The notes below the pieces were generated by a model. That model did no database searches. It saw only the letters and a program-made list of their open reading frames with translations, and had not been told where the DNA came from. Shown piece by piece: positions 568 through 41,020 of a stretch of 42,350 bases of DNA (position 1 is the stretch's first letter; each line of letters opens with the position of its first letter). The position numbers and the translations under genes were made by a program. Origin of the DNA: a virus (taxonomy: Duplodnaviria > Heunggongvirae > Uroviricota > Caudoviricetes); the IMG/VR virus record IMGVR_UViG_2636415673_000001, positions 1 to 42,350 of that record; one strand, written 5' to 3'.

Positions 568-582
568 TTAGTATAAAAAAGC
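568..582. other. attR: attR core (15-bp lambda common core O)
   Basis: ttagtataaaaaagc = reverse complement of lambda core GCTTTTTTATACTAA; identical 15-mer in same orientation at 41006..41020. Confidence 0.9.
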
Positions 583-740: not shown

Positions 741-925
741 GATTTTTTGTCCTCTTGCGCTAATTTTTTGTCATCAAACATGTCGTTCTCCAGAGAAGCA
801 TAAAGCCTTGCAATCAAGTGCAAAGCTTTGTGTACCAGAGTTTTCCTCATCAACTACCGCAAGTATCGATCGATTGAGACTTGGATGATAGACTTCATAC
901 CTTTCAGAACTCATTGATTAAATAA

Positions 926-1288
926 ATGTTAAATATATTTGCAAGGTACACCTCGATTGGTGTGCTGAACACACTTATACACTGGGTGGTTTTTGGTGTA
1001 TGTATCTATGCCGCGCATACCAATCAGGCTCTGGCAAACTTCGCAGGTTTCGTTGTGGCTGTGAGTTTTAGCTTCTTCGCGAATGCAAAATTCACATTCA
1101 AAGCATCAACTACAACGATGCGCTACATGTTATATGTCGGGTTCATGGGAACACTCAGTGCTACTGTTGGATGGGCTGCTGATAGATGCGCACTTCCCCC
1201 GATGATAACTCTTGTCACCTTCTCCGCCATCAGCCTGGTGTGCGGTTTCGTCTATTCAAAGTTCATTGTCTTTAGGGATGCGAAATGA
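926..1288 (+). CDS. gtrA: GtrA, bactoprenol-linked glucose translocase (flippase)
   Basis: 120-aa hydrophobic protein with GtrA-family N-terminus ([13 protein letters not shown]...); first gene of a three-gene operon overlapping gtrB by 4 nt. Confidence 0.85.
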
Positions 1289-2199
1289 AAATTTCTTTAG
1301 TCGTTCCGGTCTTTAACGAAGAGGCCACGATACCTATTTTTTATAAAACCGTGCGCGAATTTGAAGGGCTTCAGCAGCATGAAGTCGAGATAGTCTTCAT
1401 AAACGATGGCAGCAAAGACGCTACAGAATCAATTATCAACGAGCTTGCTGTTGCCGACCCGCTTGTGGTTTCGCTGTCGTTCACACGTAACTTCGGCAAA
1501 GAACCCGCCCTGTTCGCAGGTCTGGACCATGCTACCGGGGAGGCAATTATCCCGATTGACGTTGATCTGCAAGACCCTATCGAAGTTATTCCTTACTTGA
1601 TAGAGAAATGGCAGGCCGGTGCAGATATGGTTCTGGCTAAACGCTCTGACCGCTCCACTGACAGCAGGCTGAAGCGTAAATCTGCTGAGTGGTTCTATAA
1701 ACTTCATAACAAAATCAGCAACCCTAAGATAGAAGAAAATGTTGGCGACTTCCGGCTCATGTCTCGCGAAGTAGTAGAAAACATTAAGCTCATGCCAGAA
1801 CGAAACCTGTTTATGAAGGGTGTGCTGAGCTGGGTTGGTGGTCGAACCGATGTCGTAGAATATGCGCGAGCAGAACGCGTTGCAGGAAGCACAAAGTTCA
1901 ATGGATGGAAGCTCTGGAACTTAGCGCTGGAAGGGATCACTAGCTTTTCTACTTTCCCTTTGCGCATGTGGACTTATATAGGCCTGTTTGTGGCAACCTT
2001 ATCATTCCTTTATGGAGCATGGATGATTGCTGATAAATTGATGTTTGGAAATAGTGTTCCAGGTTACCCTTCTATCATTGTATCAATATTGTTTCTTGGT
2101 GGAGTTCAGTTAATAGGCATAGGAGTTCTTGGAGAGTATATAGGAAGAATTTATGTTGAAGTTAAGCAACGACCAAGATACATTCTAAAGGATAAGTAA
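1285..2199 (+). CDS. gtrB: GtrB, bactoprenol glucosyltransferase (GT2 family)
   Basis: 304 aa; N-terminal GT2 signature (VVPVFNEE...FINDGSKD), C-terminal TM helices; ATGA overlap with gtrA. Confidence 0.9.
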
Positions 2200-2200
2200 A

Positions 2201-3667
2201 ATGACTTTAAATATAAAAAAAACAGCCATATATATCATTGGATTTATATTCTTGACTTTCTTCTACGCCTCGATTTCAAAACAGATTTTGCCAAGTTCGG
2301 ATGCTGTTTCTGGACTTCTTGAGGGTAAGGACATTGCGGACGGAAATTGGACGCTTAGTGGATGGTATCTCTCTACAGTATCATTCTATTTTACAGACAT
2401 AATATGGTACGGGCTTGCTTCAAAGGTATTCTGGTACGGACAGTACCAAGCATACTGCATACCGGCAATTATGTATTCAATGGTTACATTGATGACATTT
2501 TATCTTTCAAAAGAAAGGCTTTCATCGTTATGGGCCATTTCATTTTGCGTTGCGCTGCCTTCTGGGTTTGCAGTATTAAACGTATTAATACCTGTGATAC
2601 ATGTCGGCACATATGTATCCATGTTGTTTTGCTTCATAATGTTAGACAATTTTTCCAAAACAAGATCGTTAATTTCTCTATCTCTTTATATTTTAGTGTT
2701 AGTTCTAGCTTGTTTCAGTGATGACATCATAAAGCTACTCATTATTGCACCAGTAGCAATATCATCAGTGGTTTTTATAGTAAAAACCAAAAGCCAAAAA
2801 AATCTGATCATACTAGTTGCAACTATATTTGCATATGTTGCATCAAAAATTATGACCATGTACGCAAGAGCTCATAACTGGTACATTTTGCCAGGCGTTC
2901 CAGATCCAACATTTGTTGCATTTGATGATATCCTGAATAATTTATACTTATTCGTAAAAGGATTCCTCCTATACAGTGGAGCTTTCTTCTTTGGCAAATC
3001 ACCTTCTGATATTACAGCGCTTATTTCTGTTTTTTGTTTTGTTGTAATGATTTTACTTCTTATATTAGTTGCAATGTCAGTAAAGGAAATATTCAAAACC
3101 TCCATGGTCAATATGGCTATATGTATAGCTTGTATTATAATGATACCAGCATACCTTGCAAGTAACCGTCCAATAGATGAATGGACTATAAGATATATCG
3201 TTCCATTTTTTATACTAGCACCTGTTGTTATTGGCAGATCTAACAACTCCAGAGGGTGGAAATTCATCGCATTAGGGGTTGTTACAACATTTATTCTCTT
3301 TTGTTCTATTTATATGCATGAAAAAAAAGACAATTCTAATGATATTATAAATCAGATAAAACACACTGTAAGGCAGAATAACCTCACAAACGGGTATGCA
3401 TCTTTCTGGTTTGCTTCATCAGCAAGTATAGATGGAGACATATCAATTGCTCCGATTGATGTAAACCGAGGTTTGAATATACTTGCATGCAATAAATGGT
3501 TGTCAAAAAACTATTGGTATGAGCGCGGAGGAAATTTCATAATTACAGATGATGAGGTTATGAGAAATATAACAATTAAAGAGATTGGTAATCCATCAAA
3601 GGTTATTGACGTCGGAGATAAGAAGATTTTTGTTTACGATAAAAACATTACATTCAACTGCAATTAA
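2201..3667 (+). CDS. GtrC-type serotype-specific O-antigen modifying glycosyltransferase (polytopic membrane protein)
   Basis: 488 aa, many TM segments, strongly AT-rich; third position of a gtrAB operon between attachment site and tailspike as in P22/Shigella serotype-converting phages. Confidence 0.7.
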   Translation: MTLNIKKTAIYIIGFIFLTFFYASISKQILPSSDAVSGLLEGKDIADGNWTLSGWYLSTVSFYFTDIIWYGLASKVFWYGQYQAYCIPAIMYSMVTLMTFYLSKERLSSLWAISFCVALPSGFAVLNVLIPVIHVGTYVSMLFCFIMLDNFSKTRSLISLSLYILVLVLACFSDDIIKLLIIAPVAISSVVFIVKTKSQKNLIILVATIFAYVASKIMTMYARAHNWYILPGVPDPTFVAFDDILNNLYLFVKGFLLYSGAFFFGKSPSDITALISVFCFVVMILLLILVAMSVKEIFKTSMVNMAICIACIIMIPAYLASNRPIDEWTIRYIVPFFILAPVVIGRSNNSRGWKFIALGVVTTFILFCSIYMHEKKDNSNDIINQIKHTVRQNNLTNGYASFWFASSASIDGDISIAPIDVNRGLNILACNKWLSKNYWYERGGNFIITDDEVMRNITIKEIGNPSKVIDVGDKKIFVYDKNITFNCN

Positions 3668-3675
3668 TTAAATAA

Positions 3676-3694
3676 GCGGGTGCTAAGCACCCGC
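3676..3694. terminator. Bidirectional stem-loop between convergent gtrC and tailspike
   Basis: Perfect 8-bp stem gcgggtgc/gcacccgc with 3-nt loop, A/T-rich on both sides, between two convergent stop codons. Confidence 0.6.
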
Positions 3695-3698
3695 ATTA

Positions 3699-5462
3699 TC
3701 ATACACTTGTACCATCCGCCCTCTTCCATTCAGATGATACTGTGTTATACCATATTGGAAGACCTAGCGTTGTATCATAATACATCTGCCCACTGACTGG
3801 TGCTGTAGGGCGCTGCGCAGTCGGTCCACGGTTTTGATAAGTCGTCTGAGTATCATTAACACCTAGACAAGCTATAATACGGTTTTTGCGTTCTTCCGAT
3901 GTATTAAGGTAAATCTTGGTTGTCATATCGCTATCGAAAGAAACGCCATTGATGGTTATGCCGTTACAGTTATCGCCGGGGTCTGTGATCCCAAGTGGTT
4001 GCACGTAGTAACCCCCCCGGATATAAGATGTACCCATAGCACCGCCGATGACAGATACCTCTTTGCAATTTACCAACGATAGACCGCCAGTCTTATTTCC
4101 GTTGTATATATTATTCGACAAAGAGCATTGTTCAGCATTTTCCAACACCATGCCAAACTCACCACAGTAGGTGATAGTGTTTCCTGTAAACGTCAGGTTT
4201 CTAGCGCCTTTAATATTAATTCCACGGGCGTTGTTTGGTCTCCCAGCACTAATAATGTTACCGCTGATGGTAGCGTAAGCTAGACTCTCCATATCAAAAG
4301 CAGTACCGTCGATGGCATCGAAAACGCTATTTGAAATTATAACCGGATAACCCGCGAATTGGTCTGTTCCGCCAACCCCACCAAGAGTTGTACGTGTCCT
4401 TACCGCGTAATCTCCAACAAACATCGTACATTGGCTGATATATAAATCGGCGGTATCCCATACGTCAATCGGAGAGTTAGAACTGAAACACATAAGAAAC
4501 TTAGGTGATTCGCTGATGAACTCCACAGTATTTAAATCCGCACGCCCCAAGAATGGACTACCCCAACGTTCGCACCGGAAGAAGTTAACGTAATGGTAGT
4601 TGTTCATAGTAGTTTGTGCGTTATAGAAAAACACCCGATCAAACTCTAAGTTCTGGACATGACGACAAACAATCCAGTTAATCAGCACGTCGGATGATAT
4701 GACTACATCTCGGAATATGCCACCCTGTTTCCACTGACTAGCAGCCGGGCCAGACCCTGTAAGGGTAAACATAGTGAAGGTTGAATCAGAACCTAGATAT
4801 TTAATCTCTGGATTTTTTGCGTTACCAATAATTTCATATTTTGCTGGAAGCTCAATGTCTCTGGTCTTCATTCCATATATGCCAGAACCTTTCAAGTGAA
4901 TTTTTCTTGCGCCTGAAGCGAATGCCTTCTGAAAGGCTATGCTATTATCTGTTATTCCAGAATCGTCTTTGCCACCAAAGTCTTCCAAAAATACAAAATC
5001 ATCCAGCTTTTCTTGTACATTCCTGAAGACAGCACCATCAACAACAGATGGTAATCCATACTTATACTTTACTGTTTCAGGGAATGCCCCGCTTGCAAAC
5101 TCTCCCTCTAGCTCATGCCGGAACTGGTCCGGGTCATACTTGATAATGTTTGGATAGTAGAACTGCTGTGTGCCATATGCGTCATACACAGCCATTGAAT
5201 GTCCCTGTACGGTAACGAACTTTGCAATCTGTCCGTTATATACCGGATAACCAGCAGCGTTAATGATGATTGGTTGCGAAACAGGAACGTGAGAGCCGTC
5301 TTCATTCTCCATATAAACCTGAATCTGGTTTTCTGGATTTACCGGGTCAGTATCAATTTTACCGATATAAATTTTTCCATTGGCAACCGCTTTAAAAGAA
5401 CGCGCCATAGTGAAGAGTTGCGAAGGCATACTCACTACAACATTGGCTGTAATGTCTGTCAT
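3699..5462 (-). CDS. Tailspike protein: P22 gp9-type head-binding N-terminal domain fused to a different receptor-binding/beta-helix domain
   Basis: First ~110 aa match remembered P22 tailspike N-terminus ([34 protein letters not shown]...); remainder unrelated to the P22 endorhamnosidase domain. Confidence 0.85.
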
Positions 5463-6298: not shown

Positions 6299-6793
6299 GT
6301 GTCTGATTCTATGAGTTACGCTGTGCTAGTTGCCGCAACTCTATTTCTGGGGATAGGGTTGCAGATTGCGTGGTTCTTTTTTTCTAGTTTTATTAAACGT
6401 AAAAGAATTGAATCAAGGATATCTGAGATTTCTATTGCTATAGGGAAAAATGCTGAAAATCCAGAGAATGAGGCCTGCGCACTGAATTACCTTAAAGAAA
6501 AGTTTTCCCCTGAAAAATTTGAAAACAGAATTACTGATGCTCTTGGATTGGTAATATCAGTAATTCATATGCCACTAAGTTTACTGATAACAGTGTGGTA
6601 CTTCGCCATGATCGCCGGAAGAATATTTGGTTTCATGAATATAGATCCTGTAGTTCTTTGGGTTCCAATGATACTGCAATTGTTGTTAAGCGTTGCTATC
6701 TTTATTTTTTCTGTTTTTATAAAAATTGTCTTTGGAAGATACCCCGGAGAAGCGAAGGGATTTAATAAAGAATTCATAAAAACTATAAAATAA
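6299..6793 (+). CDS. Polytopic inner-membrane protein, putative SieA-like superinfection exclusion protein
   Basis: AAGGAGG RBS 5 nt before GTG 6299 (alternative ATG 6311); several TM helices; AT-rich; sits between gp16 and tailspike where P22 carries sieA/immI. Confidence 0.45.
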
Positions 6794-22159: not shown

Positions 22160-22645
22160 TTATTTCAGTTCGTTACCAGGAATTTCTTTTAGCTCTTTCA
22201 AATGACAACGATTGAGGCTAAACCACTCCCCGTGCGACCTATAGTTGTAATATTTTTGGTGCAATTTGGTTTCAAGCTCTCTATCGGCCGGAATCTTTGC
22301 AATTAGATTTAGCTTCCCACCACTCATGCGAGATATCTCTGAAATTCGTTTATTAACCCTGCGACTAAACCCTATTTTTGTTAGCCCACTATCTTCAGCA
22401 TGCAGAACGTACACATATGATTTTTGCGAAGCACTGGGTGCGACTTTGTTGTAATTAATCATGTCAAACATGAAGCCTTGCTTTAGCAAAGTTTCAAAAA
22501 AGATAGAATTAACACACCCATTCCTTCTCAGCTCTGCACTTAGCTTGTCAATTTCCTCTATGATGTCGCCAGACCCCTTTCCACTTATAAGAAAATCTTG
22601 GTACATGCGACCAATTCTTGAGGTAATTTCAACAAAGTTATTCAT
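22160..22645 (-). CDS. T5orf172 / GIY-YIG-like domain protein (putative nuclease), AT-rich moron
   Basis: 161 aa; motif YVYVLHAEDSGLTKIGFSRRVNKRISEI...GEWF typical of T5orf172-type GIY-YIG domains; AAGGT RBS. Confidence 0.6.
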   Translation of the reverse strand: MNNFVEITSRIGRMYQDFLISGKGSGDIIEEIDKLSAELRRNGCVNSIFFETLLKQGFMFDMINYNKVAPSASQKSYVYVLHAEDSGLTKIGFSRRVNKRISEISRMSGGKLNLIAKIPADRELETKLHQKYYNYRSHGEWFSLNRCHLKELKEIPGNELK

Positions 22646-24479: not shown

Positions 24480-24555
24480 TGGTGCTGGTTAACGGACTTG
24501 AACCGCTACCCATTCGCTTACAAGGCGACTGCTCTACCATTGGAGCTAAACCAGC
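24480..24555 (-). tRNA. tRNA-Thr (anticodon UGU), phage-borne
   Basis: 76 nt folding by hand into a cloverleaf: 7-bp acceptor GCTGGTT/AACCAGC, D-stem GCTC/GAGC, anticodon loop CTTGTAA, T-loop TTCAAGT, encoded CCA; one G-A mismatch at top of anticodon stem. Confidence 0.65.
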
Positions 24556-24560
24556 ATATT

Positions 24561-24635
24561 TGGCGGGACAGCGTGGACTCGAACCACGATAAGAAGGTTA
24601 ACAGCCTTCCGTAATGACCTTTATACGACTGACCC
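24561..24635 (-). tRNA. tRNA-like gene, anticodon GUU (Asn); possibly degenerate
   Basis: 75 nt; anticodon arm GAAGG-CTGTTAA-CCTTC and T-arm CGTGG-TTCGAGT-CCACG perfect, encoded CCA, discriminator G; U-U mismatches in acceptor and D stems. Confidence 0.5.
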
Positions 24636-39665: not shown

Positions 39666-39884
39666 ATGTACTTAACACTTCAGGAGTGGAACGCACGCCA
39701 GCGGCGCCCAAGAAGCCTTGAAACAGTTCGTCGATGGGTGCGCGAATGCAGGATATTCCCTCCTCCGGTTAAGGATGGAAGAGAGTATCTGTTCCACGAA
39801 TCAGCGGTAAAGGTTGACTTAAATCGACCAGTAACAGGTAGCCTTTTGAAGAGGATCAGAAATGGGAAGAAGGCGAAGTCATGA
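39666..39884 (+). CDS. xis: Excisionase Xis
   Basis: 72 aa matching lambda Xis. Confidence 0.95.
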   Translation: MYLTLQEWNARQRRPRSLETVRRWVRECRIFPPPVKDGREYLFHESAVKVDLNRPVTGSLLKRIRNGKKAKS

Positions 39885-40932
39885 GCGCCGGGATTTACCC
39901 CCTAACCTTTATATAAGAAACAATGGATATTACTGCTACAGGGACCCAAGGACGGGTAAAGAGTTCGGATTAGGCAGAGACAGGAGGATAGCAATCACTG
40001 AAGCTATACAGGCCAACATTGAGTTATTTTCAGGACACAAACACAAGCCTCTGACAGCGAGAATCAACAGTGATAATTCTGTTACGTTACATTCATGGCT
40101 TGATCGCTACGAAAAAATCCTCGCCAGCAGAGGAATCAAGCAGAAGACACTCATAAATTACATGAGCAAAATTAAAGCAATAAGGAGGGGTCTGCCTGAT
40201 GCTCCACTTGAAGACATCACCACAAAAGAAATTGCGGCAATGCTCAATGGATACATAGACGAGGGCAAGGCGGCGTCAGCCAAGTTAATCAGATCAACAC
40301 TGAGCGATGCATTCCGAGAGGCAATAGCTGAAGGCCATATAACAACAAACCCGGTCGCTGCCACTCGCGCAGCAAAATCAGAGGTAAGGAGATCAAGACT
40401 TACGGCTGACGAATACCTGAAAATTTATCAAGCAGCAGAATCATCACCATGTTGGCTTAGACTTGCAATGGAACTGGCTGTTGTTACCGGGCAGCGAGTT
40501 GGTGATTTATGCGAAATGAAGTGGTCTGATATCGTAGATGGATATCTTTATGTCGAGCAAAGCAAAACAGGCGTAAAAATTGCCATCCCAACAGCATTGC
40601 ATGTTGATGCTCTCGGAATATCAATGAAGGAAACACTTGATAAATGCAAAGAGATTCTTGGCGGAGAAACCATAATTGCATCTACTCGTCGCGAACCGCT
40701 TTCATCCGGCACAGTATCAAGGTATTTTATGCGCGCACGAAAAGCATCAGGTCTTTCCTTCGAAGGGGATCCGCCTACCTTTCACGAGTTGCGCAGTTTG
40801 TCTGCAAGACTCTATGAGAAGCAGATAAGCGATAAGTTTGCTCAACATCTTCTCGGGCATAAGTCGGACACCATGGCATCACAGTATCGTGATGACAGAG
40901 GCAGGGAGTGGGACAAAATTGAAATCAAATAA
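39862..40932 (+). CDS. int: Integrase Int (tyrosine recombinase)
   Basis: 356 aa matching lambda Int; overlaps xis 3' end. Confidence 0.95.
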   Translation: MGRRRSHERRDLPPNLYIRNNGYYCYRDPRTGKEFGLGRDRRIAITEAIQANIELFSGHKHKPLTARINSDNSVTLHSWLDRYEKILASRGIKQKTLINYMSKIKAIRRGLPDAPLEDITTKEIAAMLNGYIDEGKAASAKLIRSTLSDAFREAIAEGHITTNPVAATRAAKSEVRRSRLTADEYLKIYQAAESSPCWLRLAMELAVVTGQRVGDLCEMKWSDIVDGYLYVEQSKTGVKIAIPTALHVDALGISMKETLDKCKEILGGETIIASTRREPLSSGTVSRYFMRARKASGLSFEGDPPTFHELRSLSARLYEKQISDKFAQHLLGHKSDTMASQYRDDRGREWDKIEIK

Positions 40933-41005: not shown

Positions 41006-41020
41006 TTAGTATAAAAAAGC
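41006..41020. other. attL: attL core (15-bp lambda common core)
   Basis: ttagtataaaaaagc, identical to 568..582; int-proximal junction. Confidence 0.9.

Follow-up and report, generated by a model that had tools for sequence, protein, structure and literature searches.

A predicted O77-group O-antigen glucosylation operon and a TSP3-type tailspike gene in a P22-like prophage of Escherichia coli

Here we describe the receptor-specificity end of a P22-like prophage, namely, positions 926-5462 of a 42,350-nucleotide stretch of DNA (IMG/VR record IMGVR_UViG_2636415673_000001; hereinafter, the window) that contains the genes gtrA, gtrB and gtrC followed by a convergent tailspike gene. The window is 100% identical to sequence of Escherichia coli LSC52, a urine isolate from Brazil. 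With a probability of about 0.75, we interpret this region as an operon for glucosylation of the O77-group O-antigen combined with a spike of the type of TSP3 from phage CBA120, a combination that would exclude related phages from the lysogen. In its general layout, the region follows the canonical plan of a P22-like prophage, with an O-antigen conversion operon accompanied by a modular tailspike, and belongs to a known kind of system; new here is the GtrC allele, which comes from an unmodelled family that also includes the O44 enzyme. The predicted target is the O77-group backbone, and the spike is TSP3-like.

The three genes of the operon are tightly packed on the same strand at the attachment site (att) end of the prophage, the arrangement characteristic of Gtr systems. 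The first gene, gtrA (926..1288, plus strand), encodes a small membrane protein of 120 amino acids (aa), the proposed flippase of glucose linked to undecaprenyl phosphate (Und-P), which was recognized in both Pfam (PF04138, GtrA_DPMS_TM, 2e-13, residues 7-116) and PHROGs (phrog_2224, GtrA-like, 3e-69); its accession, WP_000931964.1, is that of the GtrA protein of E. coli 042. The second gene, gtrB (1285..2199, plus strand), overlaps gtrA by 4 nt and encodes a 304-aa glycosyltransferase of family 2 (GT2), the bactoprenol (Und-P) glucosyltransferase, with matches to PF00535 (Glycos_transf_2, 4e-30) and, over the full length, to the GtrB family of PHROGs (3e-178). Both products thus have the family membership and size of their counterparts in Gtr systems (GtrA/DPMS family, ~120 aa, and GT2, ~305 aa, respectively). 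The GC content of gtrA and gtrB is 44-46%, and the ratio of nonsynonymous to synonymous differences (pN/pS) of gtrB is 0.09-0.11 against the Citrobacter and Salmonella copies. The presumed promoter and regulatory DNA of the operon lies immediately upstream (791..925, plus strand); these 135 bp are ~94-95% identical in other E. coli gtr prophages, at 3 loci, that carry a different gtrC or none.

The third gene, gtrC (2201..3667, plus strand), starts 1 nt past the gtrB stop codon and encodes a 488-aa protein that is predicted to be a serotype-specific transferase of the GT-C fold. The GC content of this gene is 34.2%, against 47.2% for the whole window. The AlphaFold model, built with 20 homologs (predicted local distance difference test score 85, predicted template modelling score 0.86), consists of ~13 transmembrane helices and a C-terminal alpha/beta domain; the top 20 matches in a fold search are all GT-C-fold proteins, nearly all of them lipid-linked-sugar transferases. 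As modelled, the protein has the features expected of the GtrC component of Gtr systems, a variable glycosyltransferase that is encoded by AT-rich DNA, spans the membrane several times and has its active site on the periplasmic side. Searches for a known family returned no match in Pfam (E<=0.01) or NCBIfam, PF14264 included; a PDB sequence search gave nothing useful, PHROGs yielded unnamed fragments only, on the C-terminal part, and RefSeq labels the product 'hypothetical protein'. The naming of GtrC rests on position, predicted fold and homologs, not on a family match. The initial annotation, which was made from the sequence alone, had described the four open reading frames of 926-5462, with the tailspike convergent to gtrC, as they are found, had named gtrA and gtrB in agreement with Pfam and PHROGs, and had described the third gene as an AT-rich, polytopic 488-aa protein, all of which holds; its further assignment of this protein to the GtrC type is borne out by position, predicted fold and homologs but not by any Pfam or NCBIfam family, and the non-glycosyltransferase fold that it had named as the outcome that would overturn the assignment did not emerge, given that the predicted GT-C fold favours a glycosyltransferase.

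Two known types of third gene were considered and rejected. Membership in the Shigella GtrII-type family (PF14264, Glucos_trans_II) is not supported by profile, BLASTP or hhalign comparison; against the PF14264 member of the O17 reference strain, neither BLASTP nor hhalign was significant (hhalign probability 6%). The Salmonella family II acyltransferase type was dismissed because GtrC contains no acyltransferase-3 or SGNH domains from Pfam and the fold search points to GT-C. The family to which GtrC does belong is large: at a threshold of E<=1e-3, a profile search retrieved 3457 representatives of clusters formed at 50% identity, 583 of them also at E<=1e-30, and a profile derived from a 40-sequence alignment added two further proteins only; none of 10 sampled members matched Pfam. 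Across 40 relatives with 21-41% identity, D34, G48, N49, W55 and H134 are invariant, the first four all located in the loop past the first helix, and D174 and R331 are almost invariant. The predicted active site would include D34, and H134 or D174. In all of the enterobacterial loci inspected, which come from E. coli, Salmonella, Citrobacter and Enterobacter, the gene of this family is the third, directly past gtrA-gtrB. A tblastn search of 50,697 phage records yielded no match to GtrC, so that this gene is known only from prophages.

Convergent to gtrC is the tailspike open reading frame (3699-5462, minus strand; 587 aa), and between the two lies a GC-rich hairpin (3676..3694), a likely terminator; the terminator scan detected a stem of 8 pairs, 7 of them G-C, and, after it on the minus strand, a tail rich in T. 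The spike consists of two parts. Residues 1-113 (5124..5462, minus strand) form a P22-type head-binding, or particle attachment, domain (PF09008, 6e-67); residues 1-124 align to P22 tailspike structures and residues 1-183 to the gene 14 protein of Sf6, and the alignment with the P22 tailspike ends at about residue 124. Residues 114-587 (3699..5123, minus strand) comprise the receptor-binding and catalytic part of the CBA120 TSP3 type (PDB 5W6F/6NW9, E=2.5e-220): residues 114-586 correspond to TSP3 158-626, with 66% identity over 469 aa, and a Beta_helix domain was detected at residues 368-470 by Pfam. The initial annotation had ascribed to this protein a P22 head-binding N-terminus joined to a receptor-binding domain of non-P22 origin, and both statements agree with these alignments; its description of the spike as chimeric fits the modular structure, but a PF09008 domain followed by a parallel beta-helix is the usual design of P22-like tailspikes and no oddity. 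The relationship to TSP3 extends to the D3 beta-helix, the D4 subdomain and the catalytic Glu/Asp pair: E318, D339, D382 and H290 of the spike correspond to E362, D383, D426 and H334 of TSP3, all conserved. TSP3 itself, a trimeric glycosidase with a beta-helix fold, depends on Glu362 and Asp426 for its activity (PMC6517402), and it enables CBA120 to infect E. coli O77; replacement of its body abolishes spotting on O77 (PMC9965104). We infer that the LSC52 spike is a TSP3-like predicted endoglycosidase for the O77-group backbone. By sequence comparison, both gtrC and the spike evolve under purifying selection, with pN/pS of 0.16-0.21 for gtrC against the Citrobacter and Salmonella copies and 0.11 for the receptor-binding part of the spike against Citrobacter.

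The O-antigen cluster of the host is of the matching type. The galF-gnd cluster of LSC52 encodes two glycosyltransferases, manC, manB, and wzy and wzx that are annotated as 'O17/O44/O73/O77/O106 family', so that the O-antigen of this host is of a type known in glucosylated variants. The O17, O44, O73, O77 and O106 clusters are more than 99% identical and specify a common backbone of mannose and N-acetylglucosamine (Man-Man-Man-GlcNAc); in O77 this backbone is unbranched, and in the other four it bears side branches of glucose that are attributed to prophage gtr genes, with confirmation only for O44 (PMC7685785). Genome-based typing lumps the five serogroups together as "O77g", including in the work on the 2025 French outbreak of haemolytic uraemic syndrome (PMC13188871). 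Among 5426 complete E. coli genomes, gtrC is present in 25, always at >=99.3% identity, and the O77g wzy-wzx pair in 94; 20 of the 25 carriers were checked for the O77g cluster, and all 20 have it, without a counter-example (outside the check are strain 300033 and four apparent sister isolates). The carriers include one strain of cryptic clade I. The gene occurs in three insertion contexts, namely, a P22-like prophage at att-lambda, an SfV-like myovirus prophage also at att-lambda, and a remnant between sbcB and dacD. The full-length receptor-binding region of the spike is found in 14 genomes, 11 of which carry this gtrC (8 of the 11 verified as O77g); the remaining three are two O176 hosts and PSS-11.

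The third genes of other O77g strains bear on the question of which serogroup this gtrC would specify. E. coli 042 (O44:H18), like LSC52, has a gtr prophage at the ybhB/ybhC site, with an identical GtrA, gtrAB DNA ~95% identical to that of the window and an O77g host cluster; next to ybhB, its gtrA and gtrB are followed by a third gene, for a protein of 491 aa, that belongs to the same family without a Pfam model, is of similar size and is 32% identical to gtrC (E=1e-80). This operon has been credited with the glucose branch of O44 (PMC10304059), and the third gene was named WbbG in Wang et al. 2007, as reported by PMC10304059. Unlike LSC52, 042 carries an SfV-like myovirus prophage with tail fibres rather than a P22-like spike prophage, and, because its third gene is only 32% identical to gtrC, a different acceptor position is expected for the window allele. 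The two alleles occupy non-overlapping sets of genomes: the O44-type allele is found in 12, none of which has the window allele. The O17 reference strain K12a possesses an argW-linked operon, the third gene of which belongs to PF14264; this O17-type allele is present in 35 genomes, at least 2 of which are O176, not O77g. An assignment of the window gtrC as the O17 or O44 determinant was rejected: K12a and 042 lack this allele and have other third genes. Given that neither the O17 nor the O44 reference strain carries it, the gene is, by elimination only, a candidate determinant of O73, of O106 (or of one component of either), or of an unnamed variant. The side-branch transferases of O73 are stated to be unidentified (PMC10304059), and the literature searched yielded no phenotypic serotype for any strain with this gtrC. 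In one strain, 2018-05-2CC, two gtr remnants flank the O77g cluster, one of the window type with a truncated spike (sbcB-dacD) and one of the O17 type near yegL; with both alleles in the same genome, the O-antigen of this strain is predicted to be doubly glucosylated.

In the mechanism that we propose, where the donor sugar, the position that accepts it and the effect on superinfecting phages are all inferred, GtrB would make undecaprenyl-phosphate-glucose at the cytoplasmic face of the inner membrane, GtrA would carry it to the periplasmic face, and GtrC would move the glucose onto one sugar of the Man-Man-Man-GlcNAc repeat. The glucose branch would convert the unbranched O77-type antigen to that of a branched serogroup, most likely O73, O106 or one component. 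The P22-type N-terminal domain of the spike would plug into the tail, and the TSP3-type beta-helix endoglycosidase would bind and cut the same mannose-rich backbone during adsorption; the branch in the lysogen would then lower binding or cleavage by the spike, blocking superinfection by the same or related phages and changing the serotype. The initial annotation had likewise predicted a modified, probably glucosylated, O-antigen in the lysogen and a tailspike directed at the unmodified form, with lysogenic conversion and receptor-level exclusion as the outcome; the computational comparisons support this prediction in all the parts that they cover.

Comparison with other prophages provides evidence for a meaningful pairing of gtrC with the spike as well as against an obligatory one. 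In prophages of Citrobacter and Enterobacter, gtrC and the receptor-binding part of the spike travel together. Citrobacter freundii encodes a GtrC 88% identical to that of LSC52 and then a convergent 679-aa spike with an unrelated N-terminus, the last ~540 residues of which are ~88% identical to the LSC52 spike; the DNA match is a single ungapped block (window 1244-5018), in which gtrC, the terminator and the receptor-binding region are 81-92% identical and gtrB is ~75% identical, and there is no similarity past the spike domain junction. The corresponding protein identities in Enterobacter hormaechei are 53% for GtrC and 49% for the receptor-binding part of the adjacent spike.

Several observations weigh against the proposed interpretation. 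In 12 of the 25 genomes with gtrC, the match to the window stops within the spike gene, of which it includes only the last ~80 bp; in M7424, the one inspected of these 12, gtrABC resides in an SfV-like myovirus prophage with tail fibres; that the 12 genomes contain prophage remnants was considered and rejected, given that M7424 holds this different prophage. Conversely, P22-like prophages of the O176 hosts GF66.2 and MB53 encode spikes 94-95% identical at the protein level, which are paired in GF66.2 with an O17-type gtrC and in MB53 with no gtr genes at all. The receptor-binding module is present also in the virulent Kagunavirus BUCT789. The pairing of gtrC with the spike is, then, loose rather than obligatory. 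Furthermore, gtrABC persists in prophage remnants (E. coli 2018-05-2CC and Salmonella Carrau), which points to a benefit to the host that is independent of phage exclusion. Glucose as the donor sugar is assumed from the homology of GtrA and GtrB; members of the GtrC family in Pseudomonas sit among GT4 and MBOAT polysaccharide genes without gtrAB, so that, taken as a whole, the family extends beyond Gtr systems; a simple sigma-70 scan detected no plus-strand promoter upstream of gtrA; and a spike with 66% identity to TSP3 could tolerate or even prefer the branched antigen.

With respect to the two O176 hosts, the O176 cluster is homologous to the O77g cluster gene for gene, and O176 has been grouped with O77g as mannose-containing (PMC7685785). 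As a separate observation, the wzy gene of O176 is annotated as frameshifted in both GF66.2 and MB53.

One alternative is that the gtr operon is chiefly cargo of benefit to the host, through serotype switching and evasion of immunity or predators, and that it adjoins the spike only because both are located at the att-proximal end of such phages, with the spike unaffected by the modification. In favour of this alternative are the spike-less myovirus prophage of M7424 and the other carriers without most of the spike gene, the decayed remnants, and the association of the same spike type with another gtrC family or with no gtr. In addition, ISEc31 or IS3 insertion sequences apparently interrupt the spike gene in JNE25-001, JNE25-003, JNE25-005, JNE12-007, ESC818 and G4/9, with gtrABC intact, which suggests that the conversion genes were kept after phage inactivation; and amoebae have been reported to recognise branched O73 lipopolysaccharide poorly (PMC10304059). 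We nevertheless consider this alternative unlikely. The gtrC gene and the receptor-binding part of the spike are inherited as one block that is better conserved than the flanking gtrB and the spike N-terminus, and the two diverge in parallel, 88% with ~88% and then 53% with 49%. O-antigen conversion lowers adsorption of P22, Sf6 and SfV-type phages, and, in any case, host benefit and exclusion are not mutually exclusive. Far less probable still is that the 488-aa protein is another kind of membrane enzyme (an acyltransferase of the Salmonella family II GtrC type, a polymerase or a ligase-like protein) or acts on a different glycan: the lack of a Pfam or NCBIfam match, the 'hypothetical' label in RefSeq, the absence of profile similarity to the PF14264 GtrII-type GtrC and the surroundings of the Pseudomonas relatives would be compatible with such a role, but the predicted GT-C fold with its 20 top matches, the absence of an acyltransferase domain in the Pfam search, the position directly past gtrAB in all enterobacterial cases examined, the confinement of the 20 checked carriers to an O-antigen group defined by glucose branches, and the homolog at the same locus in 042, the reported O44 glucosyltransferase (PMC10304059), all argue against it.

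Glucosylation of the O77-group antigen coupled to recognition by the spike accordingly remains our preferred reading. A broader proposition, which we put forward tentatively and at somewhat less than even odds, joins two claims: that gtrC and the receptor-binding part of the spike constitute a co-inherited mask/cut cassette that moves between unrelated phage types and between enterobacterial genera, its halves diverging in step; and that this gtrC allele is the O73 or O106 determinant, drawn from a large GT-C family without a Pfam or NCBIfam model, which comprises at least 3,400 clusters when grouped at 50% identity.

Comparison with well-studied phages delineates what is shared and what is distinct. 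[quoted passage not shown] A further difference from P22 is that the LSC52 operon shows no signature of Dam/OxyR phase variation (PMC3688519). In the Salmonella gtr operons that are phase-variable by this mechanism, four GATC sites are located in paired OxyR half-sites upstream of gtrA (PMC3688519); such regulation was rejected for LSC52, where a single GATC, at 868, is present within 478-925. The TSP3 spike of Kuttervirus CBA120 is 66% identical to that of LSC52 across a region that takes in the neck, the D3 beta-helix and the D4 subdomain at the C-terminus, and its target serogroup matches the LSC52 O-antigen cluster; by contrast, the two spikes are anchored by unrelated N-terminal domains, Ackermannviridae head domains in TSP3 and a P22 head-binding domain in LSC52. 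The phage CBA120 itself is a virulent myovirus that has four spikes and is not known to carry gtr genes. The Shigella flexneri phages SfII, SfV, SfX and SfI share with LSC52 the three-gene logic, with ~80% DNA identity in gtrA/gtrB; their GtrII-type GtrC (PF14264), a type that occurs also in the O17 reference strain and in a further 34 E. coli genomes, is not detectably related in sequence to the third gene of LSC52.

According to the RefSeq annotation, the window contains one complete P22-like prophage (~568-41020) between ybhB (1-477) and ybhC (from 41067). The prophage is intact and integrated at the lambda attachment site: the lambda-type att core, TTAGTATAAAAAAGC, is an exact direct repeat (568..582, with the other copy at 41006-41020) that marks the prophage/host junction beside ybhB and lies 344 bp upstream of gtrA. 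The att core and the annotated gene order place the gtr operon and the spike in the same att-proximal position as in P22. The gene set includes the portal, scaffold, P22-type coat, gp4/gp10, needle and ejection proteins, along with sieA, lysis genes, nin genes, immunity genes, xis and int (39862-40932). The integration module of this P22-like prophage is of the lambda type, with the att core repeated exactly at both ends; the adjoining DNA (583-~790) presumably resembles the P arm of lambda. At 0.8 kb past the spike there is an AT-rich gene (6299-6793, plus strand) for a SieA-like protein of superinfection exclusion (phrog_7745, 4e-108), which would act at the level of injection and add another exclusion function to the one proposed at the receptor. 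Farther away, RefSeq annotates genes for tRNA-Thr and tRNA-Asn (24480-24555 and 24561-24635, minus strand) between a Q-type antiterminator and the holin, and an open reading frame for a GIY-YIG nuclease (22160-22645, minus strand) between the lysis and terminase genes may be a homing-endonuclease-like insertion. A second lambdoid prophage of LSC52 adjoins sbcB, ~17 kb from the O-antigen cluster.

The system described here offers a clean natural setting in which to study how a temperate phage links recognition of its receptor with the masking of that receptor; a close structural homolog of the spike, TSP3, has a solved structure, and the lytic phage CBA120 can serve as an independent probe of the modification. 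The three gtr alleles are candidate markers for splitting O77g in silico, and gtrC in particular is a candidate gene to separate serogroups that genome typing lumps together. More generally, the GtrC family is a large set of GT-C membrane glycosyltransferases that are not modelled in the current domain libraries.

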